Shown in pieces: positions 15,884 through 64,000 of a DNA stretch of 64,000 bases (the stretch's first letter is position 1; the number at the start of each line of letters is the position of its first letter). The notes under the pieces are model-generated. The model made no database searches and was not told the DNA's origin. It saw nothing but the letters and a program-made list of their open reading frames with translations. Both the position numbers and the translations under genes were made by a program. Source of the stretch: Yuukianura sp. NJ FZ-2021 (lineage: Eukaryota); the NCBI GenBank assembly GCA_046563655.1, contig CM102285.1, positions 14,570,001-14,634,000 on the forward strand. The letters run 5' to 3'.

Positions 15884-17021
15884 TTATGCAAAATTTGATC
15901 GCAAAAATTGGAAACAGCAAATGAGAATCAAAATTGTTTGAATTTGGATGCGACAAGTGTTTTTCCCAGGCGCTGATCCTGAACTCAAAACGTTCTCCTT
16001 GTCTTTACCAATGAAATTTCCTATTCAAAAAAAAAGAAAAGTTTTTGAAATTTTTGTTTAGAAAACTTAGAAACACTTTGAAATCAACCTGGTGGAAAGT
16101 ACTGAGCTGCAACATAGAATGCGCCATCTTTTGCTTGTGCGTAGCTCATACACATTTCTTTGGATCCTGGGGAAGAGAACAAGCATTGTTAAAAAAAAAA
16201 GTAAAAATTTTCAAAATCCTTTTTTAAAACTTTTTCAAAATTTGATATTTCTGAAAGCTACCTTTCCAGACGACTTGTGTAAAGTGACCAGTGACTCCAG
16301 ACTTTGCTCTGTGATTAGCAAAGTCGTAGGTTTTGACTTCGTCGTACCAATCTTGTACAGTCTTGCTCGCTGGTTGCAGTTTGACTGAGTACATTGCCAA
16401 GTTTTCTCCACATCTCATGCCTTCACGTTTAATCCCTTCCATGTTACTCGTATGCATCATATTCTTGGCAGCTGCATTCTTATTGGCTGTCCATTGAGTA
16501 GTTTTACACATCTGAAAGTAATCGATTACTTTAGTCATCACAATATAATCGATTACTTTAGTAATCAATTGATTCAGGAAGAATTTGAAGTGAGACGGTC
16601 ACCTCACTTCTTCTCCAGCCTTACTTCAACCAAAACTCACCTTGGGATTGTACACCAGATCAGGAACGCCTGAAATCGATTACAGAAAATTCAATTATGT
16701 AAAATCGTTTGGGATTTTTTTTTGAAAATTTAGATTTTTTTAACCATGTTTCTTGCGAAGTTTGTTGTGAGCTGCGACTCCTTCTTGTGCCCACTTGATT
16801 CTGTCTCCATCCGAGGGAATCTCTGCCGTCTGTTCAAAAATTTCAAAATATCATGTACCATTCTAAAAACAAATAATAATTTCGAACTATTTTGAATTTT
16901 GAAAACTGACCATATTTTTTCCGTTTTGTGTTATGCAGTCTGGAGCCACTAATGCTGAGGTCACAGCCAGTAGACCAAGGAACAAAACTCCTTTAGACAA
17001 ACTGACTCCGCCGAACATCAT
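15884..17021 (-). CDS. CAP/SCP secreted protein B
   Basis: Six exons; [36 protein letters not shown]; hydrophobic tail. Confidence 0.88.
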
Positions 17022-17248: not shown

Positions 17249-18494
17249 TTATGCAAAATTTGATTTGATTTTGCTGAGAAAATGGAAACAGAAAATGAAA
17301 ATCAAAATTTTTGAAATTTGGATGTGACAAGCGTTATTCTTTTTCGCAGTGGGAGGTGGCCCAGTGCCACTGCCAGAACCAGCAGATCTCTCTTCTAGAT
17401 CTGTGGAGTCATCTCCTGGTACAGACGCTGATCCCAATGCGAAAACGTTCTGCCCATGCTCCCCAATGTAATTTCCTGTTCAAAAAAAAGTTTTTTGAAA
17501 TTTTGAAAAAGTTTGAAACAATTTTAAAGTAACCTGGTGGATAGTACTGAGCTGCAACGTAGAATCCGCCATCTTCTGCCTGTTTGTAGCTCATACACAT
17601 TTCTTTGGATCCTGGAAACCAAAACAAGAATTTTTCAAGAAAAAGAAAGTAAAACTTTCAAAATCTTTTTCTATTTTTTATTTTTATTTTTTCAAAATCT
17701 GATTTTTGTTTAAAAATTAGTTACCTTTCCATACGACTTGTGTGAAGTGACCAGTGCCTGCTCCTTCATGTGTATTAAAGTCGTAGTCTTTGATTTCGTC
17801 GTACCAAGATTGTACAGTTTCGCTCGCTGGTTTCAGTTCCGGTGAACTGCTCCAGTACCACGCTAAGTTCTCTCCACATTTCATGCCATCTCCAATCCCA
17901 TCAATTTTTTTAGTATGCGTCATTTTTCCGCCAGCTGCATTCTTATTGGCTGTCCACTGAGCACTTTTGCACATCTGAAAGTAATCGATTACTTTAATCA
18001 TCACATCACAAAGTAATCGATTGATTCTGGAAGAGTCTGAAGGGAGGCGGTTACATCACTTCTGTCCCAGCCGTACTTCAACCAAAACTCACCTGAGAAT
18101 TGTACACCAAATCAGGAGCGCCTGAAATCGATTACAAAAGAAATCAAATTTAGAAAATCGTTTTGGCATGATTTTTCTTTTGAAAATTTTGAAACTCCTG
18201 TTTTTTTTTTTACCATGTTTCCGCCGCAGCTTATTGTGAGCCTTGACTCCATCTTTTGCCCACTTTTCTCTGTCTCCGTCAGAGGGAACCTTTGCCTCCT
18301 GTTCAAAAATTTCAAAATTTGATTAACTTTTATTTTAGACATGAATCATAATTTTGAACTTTTTTTGAATTTTGAAAACTGACCAGCACGTTTCCGTCTT
18401 GGTTAATGCAGTCTGGAGCTGAGAGGGCTGAAGCAAGAGCCAGTAGACCAAGTAACCCAACTTCTTTTGACCAAACTACTCCACCGAAAGTCAT
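17249..18494 (-). CDS. CAP/SCP secreted protein C
   Basis: Six exons; [37 protein letters not shown]; Ser/Gly stalk and hydrophobic tail. Confidence 0.88.
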
Positions 18495-18723: not shown

Positions 18724-19991
18724 TTATACAAAATTTGATTTGATTTTGGCAAAAAAATGGAAACTGAAAACGAAAATCAAAATTTTTGGAATTTGGAAGT
18801 GACAAGCGTTATTCCCTTTCGCAGTAGGAGGGGGCCCGCTGCCAGCTTTATTGCCTGAGTCTCCGGAGTCATCCCCAGCCCCTGAGGAAGGCGCTGATCC
18901 TGATTTGAAAACGTTCTGCTCATGTTCCCCAATGTAATTTCCTGTTAAAAAAATGTTTTTGGAATTTTGAAAAAGTTTAAAATTTTTTAAAATAACCTGG
19001 TGGATAGTATTGAGCTGCAACATAGAATCCGCCATCTTCTGCCTGTTTGTAGCTCATACACATTTCTTTGGATCCTGGCAAGGAGAACAACAATTTTAAA
19101 AAAAATAAAATAAAAAAATAAAACTTTTCAGACTACTTTTCAAAACTTTTTTATCAAAATGTCATCGTTTTTTGTTACCTTTCCATACGACTTGTGTGAA
19201 GTGTCCAGTGCCTGGTCCTTCATGTTTAGCAAAGTCGTAGTCTTTGATTTCGGAGTACCAAGATTGTACAGTTTCGCTCGCTGGTTTTACTTCCGGTGAT
19301 GAACTGTCGTAGTAATACGCTAAGTTTTCTCCGCATTTCATACCATCTCCAATCCCATCAATTGTTTTAGTATGCTTCATTTTCCCGCCAGCTGCATTTT
19401 GATTGGCTGTCCACTGAGCACTTTTGCACATCTGAAAGTAATCGATTACTTTAATTCTCGTAAAGTAATTTACTACTTTAGTCACAGCAAAGTAATCGAT
19501 TGATTATGCAATCGAATCTGTAGAGAGGCGGTTACGTGTCACTTCTTTTCCTGCCTTACTTCAACCAAAACTCACCTTGGAGTTGTACACCAAATCAGGA
19601 ACTCCTGCAATCGATTACAAAGGAAATAAAATTTAGGAAATCGTTTTGGGACGATTTTTCTTTTCAAAATTTTGAAACTGTTTTTTTTTTTACCATGTTT
19701 CCTGCGTAGTTTGTTGTGAGCCTTCACTCCTTCTTGTGCCCACTTCTCTCTGTCTCCATCCGAGGGAACCTTTGCCTCCTGTTGAAAATGTTGACGATAT
19801 TTTCAAATTTTTTCAAAATATCGTCAGCTTTTTAGAAATTAAATCAAAATTTTGAACTTTTTTCAATTTTGAAAACTGACGTGCACGCTTCCGTCTTGTG
19901 TAATACAGTCTGGAGCTGAGAGGGCTGAAGCAAAACACAGTAGACAAAGGAACCAAACCCCCTTTGACGAAACTACTCCACCGAAAGTCAT
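18724..19991 (-). CDS. CAP/SCP secreted protein D
   Basis: Close paralog of [22 protein letters not shown]; stalk and hydrophobic tail. Confidence 0.88.
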
Positions 19992-48963: not shown

Positions 48964-49568
48964 GAAAAATCAAAATTTCAAAGCAATTTTGAAAACCGAA
49001 ACCATAAAATTTGTGAAAAAGAAGTTCCAAGACTATAATTTTCCTATTTTTAGAAATTGATATGGCTTTCCTAATTTTTTTTTGAACAAGGACAAAAAGT
49101 TTAGGCCAATTTTTGAGGACATAAAAAACAAACCTTCCAATTCTTTTTAGCAATTTGCTTCTGTTGGATTTCGTTTTTTTTTTGCGAATTCTGTGCCATT
49201 AGCGTTGTAAAAATCATGAGCAAAGTAGACATCCGTTCATTAGCGGTGTTTTCTTCGTTCTATGCCAATTTTCAAATTTTCAAAAAGAAAAAGTTCTAAA
49301 AACGTCAAATAGGATAGCCGTCGTATGAGCCAAAAAAAATGACAAGCGAAGGAACTGATTATTCGCGAATCGAAATTTTAAAAATTCAAACACTCGCCCG
49401 TTACCTGTTTTGAAATGGGGCTCAAACACGAACATTTTTGTTCAAAAACCTTCGTAAACAAAAAAAAAAGCACACATAGATATATTATTATGTTTCGCTC
49501 AATTTCCAGTGCAATCCAAAACAAAAACGGGTCATTTAAAGAAAAACGCTTTTGAAAACCAAGTAAAA

Positions 49569-51215
49569 ATGAAATTTCAGCGTCGAGCTGGCAAGACGCT
49601 GCAGAGAGTGAAGCAGTTGGGTCAGGAGGTCACTTCTTCCAGTGGAATTTCAATGTTGACCAAACGGAGTCAAACTTACATTGCTTTCATCTTCCAACAA
49701 GCGACGACCTTGAGAATCATCCCCTTTCGGTGGCAGGTCAAACAGAAAGTGCTCACTCCAGTGTACGGATGGGACGCTGTTCCAGCATCAGTACTTTTGG
49801 CGCTGATTATGTCCAACACGCTCTACTTGGCTCTTCGACTGCACCAGTATCGAAAGGCTGCGATGTTATCGGCAGCGTCAAGGTCATTCCACGTTCTGCT
49901 CCTATTGGCTGCCTTTCTATCTTCACTTTTTGGCTACAACAATTTCAAAAGAAGAACAGAAATTGCTAACTATTTTAACAAATTTTTTCGCAGACTTGAA
50001 TCATTAGAGGGTAAGGTTTCACCTTTGACCTTTGACCTTGGCTGTCGTTTGACCTTTGACCCGTTGCAGCACAATTTCTTGCGGAAGACTACGCACCGCG
50101 GATGAATTCGTGTGAACTGATGCTCCAAGGCTTCACGGTTATGCCTTACGTTCAAAGCTTGGCTGGAGTTTTGGTATACGTTCTACATTACAGGTTAGAA
50201 TCTTAGACGTTATATTGAAAGACATTTTATTACCTAAGTTGTGAAAGCTACTTTATGCATTGACCTTGTCTGTCCGTCTGTCTGTCTGGCCGGTTACAGC
50301 AGCACTTTATTTAAGGTCGAAAGCTACCTTATGCATCTACATTGTCTGTCTGTCTGTCTATCTGTCTATTTTCTGCCCGGCCGTATCGAAAAATACATTT
50401 GACTGACTTCATTAATACATCTTCTTAATTTTAATTGTTTCAGAGAACCGCGCTACTTGTTCTACATTTTTCATGATATCTTGCCTCCTTGGTGTCTCGT
50501 ATTTTTCATAGCTCTGGAGTTCATCATGTACGTCAGTTACTGGTTCACAATTCTTATCGCAATGTGTGCCATGTTCACATTCTGGTACGGAATTGCATAT
50601 TGGCTCAAGGAAATGAGGTCAGAGGTCAACATAAACTAAATTTAAGTTAACATCTAAAAACTTAAGTCATTTCATACACCTCGCTCAACTTCTTGTTTTA
50701 GATGCCCGAACCCGGAATCGGTGGGAAAAGGAGCTACACGGGATACGCTTGAGCAGTTGCGCGAACCGAGTACTTCTCTGAAGATTTACGGTAGTGTGGC
50801 GATAATATGCAAGTTGTTTCGTGATGCCATGAGTCCATTGGTGTTACCGTTGGCTCAGTGCTTCATCATCCTCATGTCCACATCCACCAACTACATACTC
50901 ATCCGTCACCATGACACCATGAACTTCTTCATGACATTCTGTCTCGTGTCACTGTCACTCTCCTGCATGGGAGTCTGTGTCTTTGCGTATCCAGTGGCAG
51001 CCCACATTCACTCCTTCTCTATAGCCTTTATTTCTGCATTCAAGAAAACACACGTCGCAGTGACCTTGACCCCTCGTCAGAACAAGAAAGTGAGGTCATG
51101 CAGACCCCTTAAGGTCCAAGTGGGCAATCTCATGTTCATCCGCCCTTTTACGGTACTCAAACTCATCAATTCCATCATCTACTGGACTATGCGGTCACTA
51201 CTCATCTTCAGATAG
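49569..51215 (+). CDS. Divergent 7TM chemoreceptor 2
   Basis: Intact tandem paralog of receptor 1 with the same exon structure. Confidence 0.75.
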
Positions 51216-51464
51216 TCTAAACTAACATAAAATCAAGGAAACTATTTTCAAAATTCTCATTTTCAAAAGGGAAAACAATTTTTTAACTAAACAGTCACTG
51301 ATTTATCTATCTATGTGTATTTACGTAAAATTTAGATTCTCCAGTTCGCACAGCAATCGTATCCATTAACCTCGTTCAGTTCCTGGAAAATTTGAAAACG
51401 AGCTCTTTCCAATGGCGTTGCAATTTTAGTATTACTTGTGTTCTTAATTGAGCTGCGCGAAGTG

Positions 51465-51620
51465 TTCACTTTTTCCCGACATTTCAGAATTTTTCACTTT
51501 TTCCGACATTTCAGAATTTTTCACTTTTTCCGACATTTCAGAATTTTTCACTTTTTCCGACATGTCAGAATTTTTCACTTTTTCCGACATTTCATAATTT
51601 TTCACTTTTTCCGACATTTC
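51465..51620. repeat. 27-bp tandem repeat (tttccgacatttcagaatttttcactt), 5-6 copies
   Basis: Near-perfect copies; produce the spurious FRHFRIFHF and SEMSEKVKN ORFs. Confidence 0.92.
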
Positions 51621-52035
51621 AAATCCAACTCTCCAATTTTTTTTCCTTTTGCGCGTTCTTTGCGTTCCAAAAATGATGAGCAAAGAAGACATCCGTTCAT
51701 TAGCCGTGTTTTCGTCGCTCTAAGACAATTTTCGAGAAAAAATCTAAACAATTCAAACGCAATAACAACCTTCAAGCGCCAAAAAAAACTGAAAAGCGAA
51801 GAAACTGATTACTCATAATTGGAAATTTAAAAAATTCAAACACTGTCTCGCTTCTCGTTTTCAAGTGAAGCACAAACACCTATTTAAGCCAACTTTTCTT
51901 TTTTTCAAAAAAGCTTGGGAAACGAAAATCACCTGTACACCGTTTAGCATCTTGCGCCCAATTTCCAGTGCAATACAGAACCAAAACCTGTATTTTACAA
52001 AAACACTTTTGAGAAGCCAATAAAGCTTAAAAATC

Positions 52036-53890
52036 ATGAAGTTTGAGCATCGAGCTGGCAAGAGGCTGCAGAGGGTGAAGCAGTTTGGTCAGGAGGTCAC
52101 TTCTTCCAGTGGAATTTCAATGTTGACCAAACGGAGTCAAAGTTACATTGCTTTCATCTTCCAACAAGCGACGACCTTGAGAATCATCCCCTTTCGGTGG
52201 AAAGTCAAACAGAAAGTGCTTACTCCAGTGTACGGATGGGATGCTGTTCCAGCATCAGTACTTTTGGCGCTGATTATGTCCAATACGCTCTACTTGGCTC
52301 TTCGACTGCACCAGTATCGAAAGGCTGCGATGTTGTCGGCAGTGTCAAGGTCATTCCACGTTGGGCTCCTATTGGCTGCCTTTCTAGCTTCACTTTTTGG
52401 CTATAACAATTTCAAAAGAAGAACGGAAATTGCTAACTATTTTAACACATTTTTTCGCCAACTTGAGGTTTTAGAAGGTAAGGTGCGACGTTTGACCTTT
52501 GACCTAGGCTAACGTTTTCTGTGTTGCAGCACAATTTCTGGTAGAAAACTACGTACCGCGGGTGAATTCGTGTGAACTGATGCTCCAGTGCTTCACGGTT
52601 ATGCCGTTCGTGCAAGGTTTCGCTGGAATTTTTATCTACGTTCTACATTACAGGTTAGACTTAAATAGCGAAAGCTACTTTATGATTTAATCTGGGTCTG
52701 CCTGTGTGTCTGTCCGACCGTCAGCGGGTCAACACTCCCGGGATCTGTTTTCACTGTTGAACACTTAATGAAATGACACAGGCATACCCACTATTGACTA
52801 TCATTCCTGCGGGTCAAAGGTCAGGGTCAACGGGTTTCATTCCCAGTAACATGAAATTGAAATATGTCTTTACAAAAGTTGTTCGTTCTGGCACAAAGGT
52901 CAACGTTTCATCTTTTTTACAGTTTTTATAACTATAGTCCACTATGGCTCATCGTAGTGTGTCGATTGCTAATACAGCAACATCTTTCGCTACTTTAGTA
53001 CACTCGGCATTAAGACATTAAGACCGGATTTATTATACTGAAATAGATTTTATTAACTTTATTTAATATATTTTATTTTAATTTTAATTAACATTTAATT
53101 GTCTTTTAGAGAACCGCGCTACATGTTTTACGTATTTCGTGATATCCTGCCTTCTTGGTGTCTCGTATTTTTCCTAGCTCTGGAGTACATTATATACGTC
53201 AGTTACTGGTTCACAGTGCTCGTCGCAGTTTGCGCCATGTTCACATTCTGGTACGGAACTGCCTACTGGCTCAAGGAAATGAGGTCAGAGGTCAACATAA
53301 ACTAAATGTTCGGCTTACACCTAAAAACTTAGGTTATTTCATACACTACATTGCTCAACTCTGTTTTTTTTTCTAGATGCCCAAACCCGGAATCGGCAAG
53401 AAAAGGAGCTACGCGGGAGACGCTTGGGCAGTTACGCGAACCGGCCACTTCTCTGAACATTTATGGTAGTTTGACGATAATAGGCAAGTTGTTTCGTGAT
53501 GCCATGAGTCCATTGGTCCTCCCAGTGGCCCAGTTCTTCATCATCCTCCTTCCGACATCCACCAACTACATACTCATCCGACACCATCACACCATGAATC
53601 CCTTCATCACACTTTGTCTCTTGTCACTGGCACTCGCTTGCATGGCAATCTGTGTCTTTGCGTATCCCGTGGCAGCCCACATTCACTCCTTCTCTATAGC
53701 CTTCATCTCTGCCTTTAAGAAAACACACGTCGCAGTGACCTTGACCCCTCGCCAGAAGAAGAAAGTGAGGTCATGCAGACCCCTTAAGGTCCAAGTGGGC
53801 AATCTCATGTTCATCCGCCCTTTTACGGTACTCAAACTCATCAACTCAATCATCTACTGGACAATGCGATCTCTACTCATCTTCAAATAG
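52036..53890 (+). CDS. Divergent 7TM chemoreceptor 3
   Basis: Intact tandem paralog with the same exon structure. Confidence 0.75.
52661..53035 (+). mobile_element. Non-autonomous Helentron/DINE-1-like element (longest copy of a dispersed family)
   Basis: 5' tagcgaaagcta hairpin/subTIR followed by a (CTGT)n-like tract; inverted subTIR ctttcgctact at 52984-52994. 5'-only copies at 10745, 12225, 13876, ~47575-47770 and ~50240-50370. Confidence 0.55.
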
Positions 53891-55580: not shown

Positions 55581-57638
55581 ATGGAAAAGGAACGAATTAC
55601 AACGATGAAGCAGTTACCATTCAACTTGGGTGTGAAGTGCCTGGAACAAAGTGTCGTCGAAGTGGATGTCGCCATTCGGGATTTCTCGGTTTCTTCCGGA
55701 ACTTCGTCGCTTACGAGTTTGTACTCTTGGAAGTTCCCTCATCTCAAGCTGGACAAGGTCGAAGTGACCTCGATCGTGAGGAATTTGCGAGGTCAAGGAC
55801 TGCCCAGCGACGTGCACTACTTGCACTTAGCTGAACTCCTCATAGATCGCCTCTACTTTTCCATCCTGTCTTCAATTCGGTTCATTTCGATGTTGACGAG
55901 TGTCGCCAGTGACGGGCTGTCGGATTCCTCCCGGCGACCGACGGTCGGAGACGGCGACTTTTTGAGTCTCAGTGTCATCAATCCACTTTGGTCGGACTCT
56001 AAAGTGTTCAACACAAACATGGCTTTGGTGGTTAGACATTTGCACAACCTGCTCTGTGACCTTGAGGAAACGATTCACTGGAATGTGTCCAAACTTCGCA
56101 AAATGGAACTCACTTCAACCGGATCCGACGACATGAGTGGCAAGTTCAAATTAGTAAAATTATATTCAGGATTTGAGAGCAAAAAGGCACTGTAACTGGG
56201 TAGCGTAATGATGAGAGCGATTGCCGCAGCACAGTAAGATGTAGGTTCGAATCCCACACCAGCCACGTATTTTTCCTCTCCCATTCTTGCAATATACAGT
56301 CGGTGCAAACCTACTGTGCATCGATTTCAGGTTAAAAAGCAGAATTTGAGAGTAGAAAAGTACTGTAACTGGGTAGCTCAATGGTGAGAGGGATAACCCT
56401 GGAATGGTAACACATGGGTTCGAATCCCACTCCAGCCACTTATTTTTTTTCTTTCTTTCTTGCAATTATACTGTGCATCGATTTCAGATTTTTTTAATGA
56501 AATTTTTAGTTTGACCATGACTTTTTCAGATTCTGGATCCTCATCGCTTTCAAAACCGAGACAGAGGTCATGCGTAACACAAACAGAGATTACAAGTATC
56601 GAATGCTGTGAAATTTGCAGTTTGTGTCAAGAAGCGATCAAAAGTGTTGGTGAAAAGTTGGAATCCGTTTTGACTTCGATTGCACCCAAAGATGTTTCGG
56701 CAATCGCCACAGCACGAATTGACATCACGAAAAATCTGTTTTCTAGCAGTCAGTGGAGTGCCGTTACACGATGGTGTGAAGCGCTGGGAATCGACGCTGA
56801 AGCGATTGCTTGCCATACTCGTGAGTTTCAGCGTCGAACGACCGAAATGGAAACCGAACTGAAGAAAACTTGTCACCAGCTCAACACGAACAGTCGTGAT
56901 CATCAACTTGCAGTTCAAAAGTTAGAGCGCAAATGCTCTACACTGGACAGTCAACTTCAGTTGAGAAAAAAAGAAAAGCAAGAAGCGACTGAACTGCAGC
57001 GATTTCTGGAAGATAAGGCCGCTACACTGGAGCGAACCGTGACGAAACTGGAAGATGACCTGGCCACGGTCACTGGTCAAAAAGAGACGCTGGAACAGAC
57101 GCTGAAATCGCTGGAGAAGACACATCAGGAACTCAAGTACTCTCAGACGACACATAGCCAGACACTGCGCAGAATCCAGCAGGATCTTCTGGAGGAACAA
57201 AAGTACAAAGAAACTGTGCAGAACAATATCGTGGCCTTGGAGACGTCAAACCGAAAGTACCGTTTGGAAATTGCCAAACTCCGGTCGGATCTTGGAGTCG
57301 GTTCGACCGAAAGAACGAAACTGGAGAAAGAGCTTGCCGAGGTCAAAGGTCAACTGAGCAAGGTCACCGAAGAGAATCTGAAAACAAAAGAAGCTGAATT
57401 TGAGACACTCAAAAAAGAGTTGAAACTGGCTGAACAGAAAATTGAACTACTTACACTCTACCCAGACTTGAATGGACCAATCAACACGCCCGAATCGGAG
57501 AATGAAGATGTTGTTCAAACAATGGAAAAACAACTGCAGGGAAACACAATGAGAGTCCAAGTACTGCTTCAACAAAGTGAAAAGTTGGCGGCAACGCTCA
57601 AAAAACTAAAAAAACAGAAAAAATCAAACCAAAGTTAA
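55581..57638 (+). CDS. CCDC157: Coiled-coil domain-containing protein 157-like
   Basis: YSWKFP...LAELLIDRL N-terminal motif, TQT..C..C..C, long coiled coil, LLTLYPDL...MEKQLQGN. Possible extra ATG-only exon at 55492-55494. Confidence 0.75.
56194..56265 (+). pseudogene. tRNA-like sequence, copy 1 (degenerate; SINE head or pseudo-tRNA)
   Basis: A-box-like tagcgtaatgatg, B-box ggttcgaatccc, 3' ccagcca, then a T-run. Confidence 0.6.
56367..56438 (+). pseudogene. tRNA-like sequence, copy 2 (loop CTGGAAT, nominal anticodon GGA)
   Basis: A-box tagctcaatgg, T-arm tgggttcgaatccca, imperfect stems, poly-T downstream. Confidence 0.65.
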
Positions 57639-57889: not shown

Positions 57890-60330
57890 TTATTGCCAGC
57901 GGTACATGCCACGTTTCCCTTCCAGCATTTGTTGTATCGTATCACAGTTGTCACTTGTGCAAAATACTTCCAAAATTTCTTTTTTGAGGCCACAGTCGCT
58001 CAAATTTTGGAGGTCAAAGGCACTCGGTTTCTCCCGTCGTTGTTCTCGATTCATATTTCTAAAAAAAATTACAGAATTTCAATTTTGATGTAACTTTGTT
58101 TAGTTGTTGTTCAATAGGGAGTTTGCATTATAAACAAATTATAGAAATTATGGAATTTATGGCATAATTTCCATAACTGAATAAAGTTTAAGAAGTGACG
58201 TTACAGGTCGGAATCAGCCAATACCAGAAGAGTTTACAAAACGGGTGGCAACTGGCAAGCCGAGGTGGGGCTTTCTAAATACTATAATTTCCATAATTTT
58301 TATAATTTCTATGATAATTCATATTTTCTATAATATTCATAATTTCTATAATTTATTTATAAGGCAAATGTCAAGTTTTTGAACTTACGCGTAGACATTG
58401 AAAGGCACCGTTGGTTCGATCGTCTTGACCTTAATTTTATAACTCTTGACAGTTTTGTTGAGCAGAGAAGTGAGCATGTGCAGAACGTGCGGTAAAATTG
58501 GTCCTTTCATTTCAATCGAATGTAGCGTCAGTTTTTCTTGTTTGATGCTCCGCTGTTGAACCTGCAAGGTAAATGACTTTGGGTCATGTGATTTCGTTGT
58601 CAAGTTTTACATTTTAAACGAATTTCATGTATTCTTACTTGTAATGTCTTCAACGTCGCACCGTGAAACGCCACTGGACTGAGAATAGTTGCTGGCAGTC
58701 CGGCAAAGGGACCTCCGTTTCCGACAGTCAGCGATTTGTCACTAACGAGCAGCGTAAAAAACGGAACTGAATCGCTGCCAGCGATGAGAAGGAGGCTCAG
58801 AGACTTTGAGTCCTTGGGGAGTCGGTACTGCGCAGAAGTAGGAGGAGACACCTTGGAATTGGACGTTTTATGTTCGTCGTCGTCAAAATCGCTGTCTTCA
58901 GTCAGTCTATCGTCATCTTCGTCTTCCAGGTCAACGGTACCTTGCGGTCGGGAGTACGGCAGTGTAAAATTGATGTCTAAAAACGTAAAATTTTGAAAAA
59001 AAGTTGGAAATTTTGAAAAAGTGATTGGAAATACTATGTTGAACACTGATTTTACTCTTTGTACGAAGAAGTTCTAGGAAGGATCGGTTGGTCGGTGTGA
59101 TGTAAATCTGGATCTGTTCGTCGCCTTGTGTTCCAGCTGAGCAGAACAAACAAGTAAAAGTGTTCGTACAAACGTAAAAAAATGGACACTGTCTTGCTTT
59201 GAGAAGATGAAATGCAGAACGAACAGCCTCCACCCTGAAAATTTCATAATTTCAGTTTACCATTTTTGAATTTTTTTGAAATTTTGCATTTTGGATGTCA
59301 GCTGTTTTTACCATTCTGAATACATAGAGTCAAGCAGTCGTTGATCGAACCGAATCGGCGGAAGTTTAGTTCCATTTGGCTTCACGGCAGCGATTGGTTT
59401 GACAGCTTCTCTCGGGACCATACTTAGTCCAGGAACTGACGGATGCTGCCAGTACAAACAGCATTGATGAAACTGAGCTCCTAGAGAAGTATCCAGTTGG
59501 GAACTGGACGCAGAGGGGTGTTGTGAATTATTATCAGGTGGTTCAATGTCAATACATCTCACAAAGGCTGAGATTCCAGAAGACTCTTCCGACGTTTTCA
59601 AATCGTTAGTCCAGCCGTAGGAATTTGGTGATATAACGCTGATTCCAGCTTTGAGTGACCAGTCCAGACAAAGAGAGTTACGCCATCCAGGTCCTCCTTC
59701 AGCAGGAGACAGCAAGTCGTTCAAAGGGATCCGTTTTCCAGAAAATGATTTGGATTTGAGTGAAAACGAGGGTGAGAGAGGAAGGCGTCTGGGCACAAGA
59801 GTTCTTCGTCCATCTTTAGAAGGTGACGGTGACCCACCGGAGGTCATGAAGGTCTTGAGTGGACTCATGACATAATCGGAGGTCAAGGGCACTTGTGATG
59901 ATGAGTCTCCAGTTGTCATGACCTTTGTCGGAGAAGAGTGTACTGGAATAGTAAATTTTGCTGGAGAAGAGAGTAGTCGAGAAAAACTAAGGGCTGAACT
60001 GGGTATGCCTTCTCCAGGAATCGGACGAAGGCCGAGTAAATCCATAAGTGTGGAGTCATCACCACAACTGGAAGTATCAGAAGGAGTAATGTTGGCTGGA
60101 AGTGATTTGCGTGATTTGGTTTGTTTCAGTTTCTTCGGCGGAGTATCGAACCTAATAATCATACAAAAAAAAATTAGACTTTGGTCCACCCACTACAAAC
60201 AGTAATAAGAAACGTTTGCTCAATTTTACTCGAATAATCGATCTTGCAAGGCTCTCTTCTGAATCTGAAACTTCCTAATTTTATGGACTGTATTGGGCCT
60301 CTTCCATGGACTGTCGACAGTTTCATCCAT
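57890..60330 (-). CDS. DONSON: Downstream neighbor of SON / humpty dumpty replication factor
   Basis: PWKRP...KRALQ, LCLDWSLK, LYWQHPSVP, QCPFFYVC, GLPATILSPVAFHGATL, GPILPH, QNLSDCGL. Confidence 0.92.
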
Positions 60331-61019
60331 TTTGCCCTTTTGGGTTTAAATCTCGAAGTATCAAAGTTTGAAAAAAGTGAATCAATCGCTTATTCCGTAT
60401 TCTCCTGAACAGTCTGGTTCGTTGTCAAAAAGGTTTCGCCGTCCGTTGACGTGTGTGTGAACTTCCCCGCCGACTCATCCGTCTTTCGTTAGTACTACCA
60501 TAATCGGATCTAACAATAACAAAGTAATTTATACAGCTAGAATTGACAATTTTTAGTAACTCGTAATTAATTTCAAGTATTTACCTAACGTAAATGTCAT
60601 TGACAGTAAACAAGCACACGACAGTGACACGGACGAAGATTACATCTTCTTATGTTCTGGAAGATAAAGATACGAATGACGATTAATTTAAACATACAAA
60701 TGTATACAAACATGATTTTTCTTTGTAAACGGAAACGATACTTACTCGATCGATTAATCAACGGTGCTTGATTAATTTAATTAGATTAGGCCCCAGAACA
60801 CATGGCAGCACAGCATGAAAGGCAAATGAGAATTGACGGGAACGAAGCGCGCGCGGGGGCCAGCATAACATTAAAAGAAATTCTCTGAAAAAAAAAACAA
60901 AAAAAATTTTTTTTTCAGAAGAAACAGGTTTTCTCCCTTTTGTTTACCTTTTAAAATTTTTGTATTCCCACAGGAAGTCCAGCAGCATGTATTGACCGTT
61001 TGCAGCGATTAGTAATTCG

Positions 61020-61445
61020 ATGGCCGATAAAGAAGACAGCACAGACTTGAGCACCGAAACCGATATCCAGGTTGGACCAATTGATTGGAACCAAGAGGCT
61101 GAAGCAGTCGTCAACGACATCAGTTCCTGTGTCACTTCAGCTTGTCGAAGTGTCGCCGTCCCTGGACAGTCCAGCGGAGCTTATTTAAATATTGAAACGC
61201 TCGAACATCTTTCAGTAACAGTCAGGCTTAATTCGTCTGGATTTACCGTCGTGGGGAACAAGTTTGACGATAATTCATTGGAATCCTCTGAAGAGTCAGA
61301 AATCGATCAAAAAACGTTTGAAACGCCATACGCTCTGCTCCAGTCTATAAGTCCCCAGTACTCTGCCAGTTTCGGGGGTCAACTGCATCGGAAACTGTCA
61401 GCACTTGCCCAAGAGCAGGACCAAGATGGCGACCGGCGAAACTGA
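61020..61445 (+). CDS. GSKIP: GSK3B-interacting protein (DUF727)
   Basis: Single ORF: EAEAVVNDI, AYLNIETLE, GFTVVG, FETPYALLQSISPQYSASFG...KLSAL. Confidence 0.9.
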   Translation: MADKEDSTDLSTETDIQVGPIDWNQEAEAVVNDISSCVTSACRSVAVPGQSSGAYLNIETLEHLSVTVRLNSSGFTVVGNKFDDNSLESSEESEIDQKTFETPYALLQSISPQYSASFGGQLHRKLSALAQEQDQDGDRRN

Positions 61446-64000
61446 GACCGTGGCAACCGACAAGAACGATTTCCTTACGTCGTACTTCAAGTTTCCAGAG
61501 AAGACGGACACTACAATAAGATTCTTTGACCGCGGAGAAAAGTACAGTGTGTATGGATCTGATGCCCACTATGTTTCTCAAGAAGTACTTGGGATTACTA
61601 CGGCAGTGAAAAAGTTAAGGAGTTTGGATAAGCAGAAGACCGTGGAGTACTTTAATATCAACCGATCGCGATTTGAACGATTTGTGCGTGAACTACTGCT
61701 GGTCAAGCAGTACTGTGCAGAAGTATGGGCTGAATCGAAGGGAGTTTGGAAACTGGAATTCAAGGTAATCGAGTCATTGGCTTAACTAATTATTCTGGTC
61801 TATAAAAAGTGTTAATCATGTTTATATTTACAGGGATCTCCTGGAAATTTATCTCAATTTGAAGAACTGCTGTTTTCCAATACTGAAGTGACTGTCAACA
61901 ATGGTGTTATTGGTGTCAGGATGTCCGGTGCCAGCGGGAAAGCGAAGGTAATTCGTCTCTTAAGTTCAATCATTCAATCATCAATCAATTAGTTTCAAGT
62001 TTTGAATTGTGTGTATTGTGTCAAAGGTCGTGGGCATAGCACATGTCAATACGAATGAACGGATCCTGAACCTCATTGAATTTGTTGACAACGACACTTT
62101 TACAAACTTCGAGTCCGTTCTGGTCCAACTGTCGCCAAAGGAAGCCGTTGTAGCAATTACTCCTACGTCGCATTCACAGGGTGGTGACGACAATAAAATT
62201 GAGCAGGTACGATCTTAACTTAAATCAATTACTAATTACTTCTTCGATGGTCATCAGCATGTCATGTGTCACTTTTGTTATCCAGATACTTCGGAGGAAC
62301 AATATTTTGATAAACGAACGGAAAACGTCGGACTTTGAGAAAGAAGATATCGAATTAGACTTGAAACAACTTTTGAAATCCACTTCAGCAGTTTCTGCCA
62401 AGTCCGAACTGGAAAAGAAGTTGGCCACCAGTGCTCTCACTGGAGTCATCAAGCATCTCGATCTCATGTCAAACGATTCTTACTTGGGTCAATTCTGTCT
62501 CGTGCCGTTTGATTCCGGACTCTACGTCAAAATGGATTCAGCCGCCTGTGAAGCCCTTCATCTCACCCAGAATCAGCTTGAATCCAAAAATCCACGAAAC
62601 CTTACCATAACTTCAGTCCTGGACAAATGCCGAACGGCTCAAGGTCATCGTCTCTTGGCCCAAATACTCCGTCAACCGCTTGTGGACCGCCAGAAATTGG
62701 AAGAACGATTGGATTTAGTTGAAGTTTTTGTGCTGGAACCGCTGAGAAGGAATGCCATTTATGAAGATCACTTGCGCAGAGTTCCGGACTATCAGTTACT
62801 GGCAAGGAAGTTTTCAAAACAAAAAGCAACGTTGCTGGATTGCTACAAAAGTTATCGCTGTTTGACCAAGTTACCAAAACTTGTTGAGGACTTGGACTCT
62901 TACGATGGACCACAAAAGAAAGTCATTGGTTCGTACTTTGTGGGGCCACTGAATGCACTCAAAGCGGACTGCTCCAAGTTTGTGGAAATGATCGAATCTA
63001 CGCTGGATCTGGAACTAGCTGACCAAGGAGAATTTATGATTCGACCAGATTTTGACGAAAAATTACAAAGTAAGACAAAAAAAAATGTATTTTCAAACCT
63101 CTCATTTAGCAAAATGATTTTTTTTTAATTTTTTTAGCTTTGAGAAACGAAATGGATCGATTGAAGGGAGCAATGGAGGTGGAAGCTAATAATACTCGGA
63201 AATCACTTCAGGTTGAAGACAAAGTACTCAAACTGGAAAGCGTCAGTCATCTTGGATTTCATTTTCGAATGACACTGAAGGTTACTCACTAAAACTTCAA
63301 GATCAAGAATTCGTGATCTTTGATTTTTTTTTGAATTATTTGAACTTTTGTTTTTAGGATGAAAAAGTGATGAGAAGTGGAAATTTTACAATTTTGGATT
63401 CGAAAGCCGGCGGTGTGAGATTTCGGACTTCGAAGATGGATGCACTTAATGAAAAATATGCAAAGCAAATGACTTTGTACGAAAAGGAACAAAAGGGGTT
63501 CAAGGAAGAACTCATGGTAGTTGCATGTAAGTGTGAACAAAATTGTTTCAAAGAGTTTTAATTAAGATGATTAATCAAATGATTCCGTTTCAGCTGGATA
63601 TCACGGATGCTTCGAGCAACTTGGCAACATTCTTGCTCTGTTGGACGTAATTCTGAGTTTCGCTCATGTTTCTGCCAATGCGTTAATTCCATTTGTACGT
63701 CCAAAACTACATCCCAAAGGCACCGGAATTCTGCGTTTTGAGCAACTCCGGCATCCGGTAACATTTGAAAAAAGTTTTAGCGGTTAATCAACAGTATTTA
63801 CTTCAGGTCAATGACAAACTTAACGACAATTTTAATGTTTTTTTTTTCAGTGTGTTGAGTCTCAGTGTGGCGTCAGTTTCATTCCAAATGACGTTCGACT
63901 GGAGAAAGGGAAAGAATCGTTTCTGATTGTGACTGGACCAAACATGGGCGGGAAATCGACGTTTCTGAGATCAGTTGGAGTGGCCACTCTGATGGCCCAC
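61426..64000 (+). CDS. MSH2: DNA mismatch repair protein MSH2 (3' truncated by window end)
   Basis: [86 protein letters not shown]. Confidence 0.96.

Follow-up and report, generated by a model that had tools for sequence, protein, structure and literature searches.

How is a gene expressed when its start codon lies inside the coding sequence of the gene before it? This question is raised by one end of a 64,000-nucleotide stretch of DNA from Yuukianura sp. NJ FZ-2021 (assembly GCA_046563655.1, contig CM102285.1, positions 14,570,001 to 14,634,000, forward strand), which was analysed as a whole and is called the window below. There, on the plus strand, an open reading frame (ORF) for GSKIP runs into the first codons of the mismatch-repair gene MSH2. 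We suggest, with about even confidence, that the two genes are a conserved dicistronic pair: one mRNA would carry both coding sequences (CDSs), and the MSH2 start would be reached by ribosomes that have scanned past the AUG of GSKIP. The parts of the locus are listed here in window coordinates, with lengths in nucleotides (nt), codons or amino acids (aa).

61020 to 61445, plus strand: GSKIP CDS, the first cistron, complete and intronless, 141 aa, with ATG at 61020 and TGA at 61443-61445, as given by the ORF list, Pfam and the homologue alignment.
61426 to 61445, plus strand: overlap of the two CDSs, 20 nt, beginning with the start codon of MSH2 and ending with the stop codon of GSKIP; MSH2 is read in the +1 frame relative to GSKIP, and the equivalent in L001, a contig described below, is 1226-1245.
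61426 to 61764, plus strand: MSH2 exon 1, MutS domain I, 113 codons, with the donor AAG/GT at 61764/61765, supported by Pfam and homologues.
61834 to 61947, plus strand: MSH2 exon 2, 38 codons, no stop in frame, acceptor and donor read from the sequence.
62027 to 62206, plus strand: MSH2 exon 3, 60 codons, no stop in frame, holding an AATAAA at 62192.
62286 to 63080, plus strand: MSH2 exon 4 (part), MutS domain III (MutS_III, E 7e-25); the gene extends past the window end.

By homology, the product of the first frame is a full-length GSKIP of the simple type. It matches the Pfam family GSKIP_dom (PF05303) over residues 24-129 (E 6.6e-27; 94.1 bits against a cut-off of 20.9), with positions 2-105 of the 105 in the profile covered. 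It is aligned to human GSKIP (1sgo, 139 aa) over chain residues 32-136 and is therefore considered full-length. The closest GSKIP clusters in the protein atlas are those of arthropods. In the C-terminal GSK3-binding helix, S111, P112, Y114, F118, L122 and L126 are invariant in an alignment of 11 sequences (the window GSKIP and ten relatives), and binding of GSK3 is predicted. Part of the motif of this helix is general background. Its form, SPx[F/Y] ... F ... L ... L, is taken in part from PMC8775565 (here and below, as far as the excerpts of this source go).

The second frame is identified by its homologues as MSH2, with the start at ATG 61426 in the context accaagATGgcg. Exon 1 matches MutS_I in Pfam (E 5.3e-13; 49.6 bits against a cut-off of 20.6), and all six of its matches among solved structures are human MSH2. 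The best named matches of exon 4 are arthropod Msh2/spel1; the closest is MSH2 of the springtail Allacma fusca (51% identity), followed by crustaceans (40-44%). Together, the GSKIP and MSH2 homologues would place the DNA in an arthropod, probably a hexapod close to the springtails. Homology sets in at residue 16 counted from ATG 61426, and this residue is aligned to residue 19 of human MSH2 and to residue 20 in two crustacean MSH2 proteins. With the onset this near the N-terminus, no coding exon is needed upstream of 61426. The MSH2 frame is free of stops from 61351, the preceding TAA being at 61348-61350, and 61426 is the only in-frame ATG of exon 1. A preliminary description of this DNA had claimed a complete GSKIP ORF at 61020-61445 that contains the MSH2 ATG, a 20-nt overlap in different frames, an MSH2 frame open from 61351, and an MSH2 N-terminus complete without an earlier coding exon. 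The ORF list, Pfam and the homologues agree on the first of these, the sequence confirms the second and third, and the onset of homology bears out the last.

The two frames are distinct protein-coding ORFs of one strand. Because the CDSs overlap by 20 nt, there is no room between them for an intergenic promoter, as had been pointed out before, or for a poly(A) site.

Is this layout a lasting property of the two genes? A word-based search for relatives gave one GSKIP relative among 34 candidates and one fragment of MSH2 exon 1 among two candidates, and both lie on the same contig, L001, a metagenome contig of 1852 bases from a related species. The GSKIP-MSH2 adjacency in a relative, which the preliminary description had proposed to look for, is thus present. 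In L001 GSKIP occupies 829-1245 and the MSH2 ATG stands at 1226; the overlap is again 20 nt, the frame relation is equal and the TGA is found at the aligned position. Identity between the window and L001 is 64% in GSKIP (63% in the codon alignment) and 71% in MSH2 exon 1. Where a residue is identical in both, the codon itself is identical in only about half of the cases. The upstream non-coding DNA of the two gives no reliable alignment, and no conserved promoter or 5' exon can be defined there. These half-shared codons and the unalignable upstream DNA indicate that the arrangement has persisted for a long period. As judged from the alignments, the GSKIP-MSH2 overlap is real and kept in two well-diverged species. 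No other short contig with both GSKIP and MSH2 was found by the word-based search.

Could the overlap instead be an artefact of assembly or annotation, or could the true MSH2 start lie elsewhere? L001 has three in-frame ATGs for MSH2 (1226, 1229 and 1250), and the last of them, 4 nt past the GSKIP stop, could start MSH2 without any overlap. However, the window codon aligned to it is GTG, and the overlapping ATG 61426 is the sole option there, being the only window ATG able to yield MutS domain I. Even without the overlap, the genes would still be merely 4 nt apart. The junction recurs in two independent assemblies, of which L001 is well diverged, and no repeats were found at the window junction; an artefact is therefore very unlikely.

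A separate observation concerns the end of the L001 contig. Its positions 1-78 are an exact direct repeat, 78 nt long, of 1012-1089, which lie inside its own GSKIP ORF, and the two copies diverge afterwards. Either the contig end was misassembled, or GSKIP has a partial duplicate upstream.

How, then, would MSH2 be translated? As far as signals in the sequence can tell, a shared mRNA with MSH2 reached by scanning is most likely. Between the two start codons, at 61023-61425 (403 nt), there is no ATG in any frame, against 6.3 expected from base composition (Poisson P = 0.004 if the ATG density of the window itself is taken). The plus strand of the window has 884 ATGs separated by 883 gaps, among which this one, of 406 nt, ranks second in length. 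The MSH2 exons hold 1.1-1.7 ATGs per 100 nt. In L001 the corresponding 394 nt contain one ATG (1124), which opens an ORF of 10 codons; this ORF stops 70 nt short of the MSH2 ATG.

The contexts of the start codons appear to point in the same direction. In the window they read ttcgATGg for GSKIP (T at -3) and caagATGg for MSH2 (A at -3, G at +4), and in L001 tgtgATGg (G at -3) and caggATGa (A at -3), respectively. They were scored against the Drosophila consensus, (C/A)AA(A/C)ATG, and not against one derived for this species. By this measure the context of the window GSKIP AUG appears poor and that of MSH2 good, with a weaker contrast in L001. In addition, none of the signals AATAAA, ATTAAA, AATATA and AGTAAA was found between the GSKIP stop and 62192, in MSH2 exon 3, where the first AATAAA past the GSKIP stop is located; L001 holds only an AGTAAA, in intron 1.

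The RNA at the junction folds no better than shuffled sequences (z +1.74 and -0.17); for the window junction, 61330-61470, an equally good or better fold was obtained with 195 of 200 shuffles. Such unstructured RNA suits ribosome scanning. The MSH2 AUG lies 17 nt upstream of the GSKIP UGA in both species, and the extra AUG of L001 4 nt downstream of it. This resembles viral termination-reinitiation, as in the calicivirus termination upstream ribosome-binding site (TURBS), M2-1/M2-2 of respiratory syncytial virus and M1/BM2 of influenza B virus, in which the downstream AUG likewise precedes the stop of ORF1, by a few to about 30 nt. Unlike in the viral systems with their TURBS or structure, inspection of 61340-61425 by eye showed no TURBS-like UGGGA, although an unknown element of another kind is possible there, and neither excess structure nor raised synonymous conservation was found. 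The window as a whole contains no Rfam families and no tRNAs that we could find.

The same region bears on a +1 ribosomal frameshift, which at or before the GSKIP stop (AAC UGA G) would yield a GSKIP-MSH2 fusion protein. Skipping the U of UGA would reach the MSH2 frame in both species, and this frame is open for 75 nt upstream of its own ATG. However, the sites (window AAC UGA G, L001 AAG UGA G) are not of the antizyme type, UCC UGA U, and the folds downstream of them are no better than those of shuffles (z +1.77 and +0.30). The conserved and well-placed MSH2 ATG would not be needed by a fusion, and the GSKIP domain (PF05303) is listed in none of the 55 MSH2 relatives. The fusion had been offered as one option in the preliminary description; with no shift motif, structure or fused relative behind it, we find it scarcely credible.

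The following elements upstream of GSKIP enter the mechanism that we propose for a dicistronic pair.

60163 to 60957, no strand assigned: putative shared promoter region of about 800 base pairs (bp), between a minus-strand ORF (59308-60162) and GSKIP, with ATCGAT cores at 60237 and 60749.
60958 to 60973, plus strand: pyrimidine-rich tract with ttcccacag at its end, a candidate 3' splice site of an intron in the 5' untranslated region, proposed from sequence only.
60987 to 60995, plus strand: mini upstream ORF (uORF) ATG TAT TGA (Met-Tyr-stop), 24 nt before the GSKIP start, relevant only if it lies within the mRNA leader.

The first of them is likely a shared promoter region, to judge by its place between the two ORFs. 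Elements similar to the other two occur in L001: its pyrimidine tracts resembling 60958-60973 end at about 740 and 776, and its uORF starts with ATG 794 and has 11 codons, with the TGA overlapping the GSKIP ATG.

We suggest that a promoter upstream of GSKIP would drive a single pre-mRNA. In the mature mRNA the GSKIP ORF, which has no introns, would come first and the spliced ORF of MSH2 second, the two overlapping by 20 nt. Part of the 40S subunits would initiate at the poorly placed GSKIP AUG, and others would bypass it, either by leaky scanning or after translation of the tiny uORF. The bypassing subunits would scan about 400 AUG-free nt and initiate at the well-placed MSH2 AUG. Termination-reinitiation, with a backtrack of 17 nt from the GSKIP stop, is a possible contributor. 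As at most dicistronic loci of the fly, monocistronic transcripts may be made in addition.

A stricter version of this mechanism can be formulated, in which the dicistronic mRNA is obligate, MSH2 has no promoter of its own and the uORF sets the MSH2 level, since ribosomes that lack the initiator tRNA after the uORF would bypass GSKIP. We regard it as quite improbable. Were it true, the GSKIP:MSH2 ratio would follow the availability of eIF2, as a GCN4/ATF4-like switch between two full-size proteins, and the capacity for mismatch repair would, in this lineage, depend on the state of translational stress.

What weighs against a dicistronic pair? Conservation of the overlap rests on a single related locus, L001. 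The depletion of ATGs may be largely a trait of the GSKIP family: when the synonymous codons of the window GSKIP ORF are shuffled, 9.3% of 3000 shuffles are likewise free of ATG, 14% of such shuffles of L001 GSKIP contain at most one, and an internal Met is lacking in 36 of 128 GSKIP homologues. Since the proteins of this family are poor in Met, the depletion is only suggestive. The GSKIP AUG of L001, with its G at -3, has a context that is not clearly weak. Synonymous conservation is not clearly raised near the junction, and no embedded element is visible: between the window and L001 GSKIP, the same codon is used in 15 of 22 cases at codons 101-125, compared with 25 of 50 at codons 1-100 and 4 of 10 at codons 126-141. 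The GSKIP ORF also contains an ATCGAT, at 61302 in the window and at 1033 in L001, positions that are not homologous. Should this be a DRE-like (DNA replication-related element) promoter core, MSH2 might have a promoter inside GSKIP. Finally, only 45 of the 159 annotated dicistronic loci of the fly are dicistronic-only for both genes, and most also make monocistronic transcripts (PMC4528330; here and below, as far as the excerpts of this source go). By analogy, a mixture of dicistronic and monocistronic transcripts is quite possible at GSKIP-MSH2.

These points lead to the alternative of two separate overlapping transcription units, with the MSH2 promoter and start site inside the GSKIP CDS. 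GSKIP mRNAs would then end in MSH2 exon 1, in intron 1 or further on, and MSH2 protein would not come from an mRNA containing GSKIP. The internal ATCGAT cores would be at a distance of 124 nt (window) and 193 nt (L001) from the MSH2 ATG, and the ATG depletion is not significant given the protein. Among the fly dicistronic loci, 45 of 159 have monocistronic transcripts of both genes and 69 of one (PMC4528330). However, the cores differ in place and both encode Ile-Asp in frame, and a conserved non-coding signal is not seen in the 3' part of GSKIP. For a GSKIP-only mRNA there is no canonical poly(A) signal, and the ATG-free stretch covers the entire first cistron, not merely a short leader. We consider separate units somewhat unlikely.

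Both mRNAs might also start from one promoter with a common 5' non-coding exon and differ in the 3' splice site: splicing to about 60973 would give the GSKIP mRNA, and splicing to the AG at 61418 would remove the GSKIP start and give a monocistronic MSH2 mRNA, in analogy to MOCS2A/MOCS2B. This AG sits 7 nt before the MSH2 ATG, the sequence gagcag is present in both species, as are pyrimidine-CAG tracts upstream of GSKIP, and neighbouring fly genes may have common exons (PMC4528330). Yet the sequence leading up to 61418, aagagcag, is rich in purines, while the acceptors of MSH2 introns 1-3 are T-rich; gagcag is also accounted for by a conserved Glu-Gln of GSKIP, and a branch-point-like CTTAC is found in L001 only. 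The GSKIP mRNA would, moreover, run into MSH2 regardless. Alternative splicing is thus an improbable explanation.

The same AG would be used in a spliced-leader operon, where one pre-mRNA is trans-spliced at 61418 and each molecule gives either GSKIP or MSH2. The tight spacing and the AG directly before the MSH2 ATG are the only features that speak for it. Trans-splicing at 61418 would remove the last 9 codons of GSKIP, the window holds no Rfam RNA family (weak evidence in this matter), and the literature searched on springtails yielded neither operons nor spliced-leader trans-splicing. To our knowledge, among arthropods such trans-splicing is restricted to copepods and amphipods. We strongly doubt this explanation. 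Of the bicistronic, operon-like unit of the preliminary description, the bicistronic part is strengthened by the overlap in L001, the ATG-free first cistron, the apparently weaker context of the GSKIP AUG and the lack of a canonical poly(A) signal behind GSKIP; its operon-like part, in the sense of trans-splicing, is overstated.

Which known systems does the dicistronic GSKIP-MSH2 pair resemble? Wall et al. in 2005 are said, by the title of their work, to have described continued scanning at the dicistronic Drosophila genes stoned (stnA/stnB) and Snapin. These are likewise hexapod loci with two unrelated conserved CDSs on one strand, an AUG-free first cistron and a second AUG in an apparently good context. 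In contrast to their separate CDSs, those of GSKIP and MSH2 overlap by 20 nt, the first cistron is a conserved protein of 141 codons and the shared mRNA is a predicted one. MOCS2A and MOCS2B are two conserved animal proteins encoded in overlapping frames of one locus. They are similar to GSKIP-MSH2 in the overlapping frames and the conservation of the proteins; however, their products are subunits of one enzyme, and we know of no link between GSKIP and MSH2.

Overlapping CDSs on one strand had been called rare in animals in the preliminary description. This is overstated, as they belong to an annotated class in hexapods: 159 dicistronic pairs are annotated in D. melanogaster, a part of them with overlapping CDSs, and File S1 gives overlaps of 1, 4, 8, 11, 29 and 103 nt (PMC4528330). 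Examples are CG33649/DNApol-gamma35 (4 nt), cup/CG34310 (11 nt), CG43675/CG45050 (29 nt) and sea/fabp (103 nt), and the pair Mocs2/CG42503 is described as highly conserved (PMC4528330). The overlapping fly pairs share with GSKIP-MSH2 the hexapod host and the stop/start overlap on one strand in different frames, and DNApol-gamma35 is likewise a gene of DNA metabolism, but the gene partners are different. Green-algal bicistronic loci have a weak start context of ORF1 and are depleted of start codons before ORF2 (PMC11291117; cf. PMC7896298; excerpts of both). GSKIP-MSH2 appears to share both properties with them; the algal loci, however, belong to another kingdom and are supported by long-read RNA and mutations, whereas GSKIP-MSH2 is known here from its sequence.

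If the mRNA is shared, MSH2, a core genome-maintenance gene, would rely on the promoter and the translation of an unrelated upstream gene. The locus is also a warning for annotation, since gene callers may fuse GSKIP and MSH2, truncate one of them or lose one. We know of few dicistronic pairs outside Drosophila that have been shown to be conserved between species. The locus alone demonstrates no link of GSK3 signalling to mismatch repair. The earlier suggestion that a Wnt/PKA scaffold is coupled to mismatch repair went too far: the binding of PKA-RII by GSKIP was acquired in vertebrates (PMC8775565), and co-transcription therefore implies no functional link.

How widespread is the pairing? Fusions were sought on the GSKIP side among the best 150 of 235 representatives, 9 of which, picked by length or a long C-terminal excess, were scanned with Pfam. 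None of these 9 combines GSKIP with MutS, and in the remaining matches among the best 150 the lengths and match positions leave no space for a MutS domain. Together with the 55 MSH2 relatives mentioned above, this makes the GSKIP-MSH2 pairing look lineage-restricted, as judged from gene models and not from synteny. No description of the gene pair was found in the literature searched on GSKIP, on Msh2/spel1 and on bi-, di- and polycistronic genes. The names spel1, Msh2 and Gskip are absent from 6 of 7 PMC4528330 supplements searched, in which fly GSKIP possibly appears under a CG number. The pairing, not found in print, thus seems new, within a class of dicistronic genes that is already known from Drosophila.

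Other partners of GSKIP were seen in the same set of gene models, from other animals. GSKIP is N-terminal to a PDZ domain in P0122 (743 aa) and P0076 (403 aa), and to Prefoldin in P0127 (240 aa, Hypsibius exemplaris). These models may be mis-fused; alternatively, GSKIP may often be followed closely by another gene and perhaps be a first cistron in other genomes as well.

On the other side of the putative promoter region lies the divergent neighbour of GSKIP, the minus-strand ORF 59308-60162. It encodes a Ser/Pro-rich product of 284 aa without a Pfam family, and its start is about 860 bp from the GSKIP ATG. This ORF and GSKIP may share a bidirectional promoter region.

The palindromic hexamer ATCGAT is overrepresented in the window, with 30 occurrences against 12.2 expected, a number reached in none of 100 shuffles. 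It forms clusters at 16521-16680, 17984-18132 and 19441-19615, that is, triplets about every 1.5 kilobases. To judge by this spacing, the clusters may belong to a repeated unit, or the hexamer may be a frequent promoter motif.

Last, several features lie farther from the GSKIP-MSH2 locus. On the plus strand, 49458-51215 and 52024-53890 are tandem copies of one pair of long open frames, with near-identical translations and no Pfam family, and look like a recent tandem duplication of a gene for an uncharacterised hydrophobic protein. Between the duplicated genes, 51396-51818 consists of repeated units, translated as FRHFRIFHF on the plus strand or MSEKVKNSE on the minus strand, and is probably a minisatellite. 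An open frame of 413 codons at 56397-57638, on the plus strand, is rich in Glu, Lys and Leu and coiled-coil-like, with a sub-threshold match to Fib_alpha (E 0.0016; 19.1 bits against a cut-off of 29.9).

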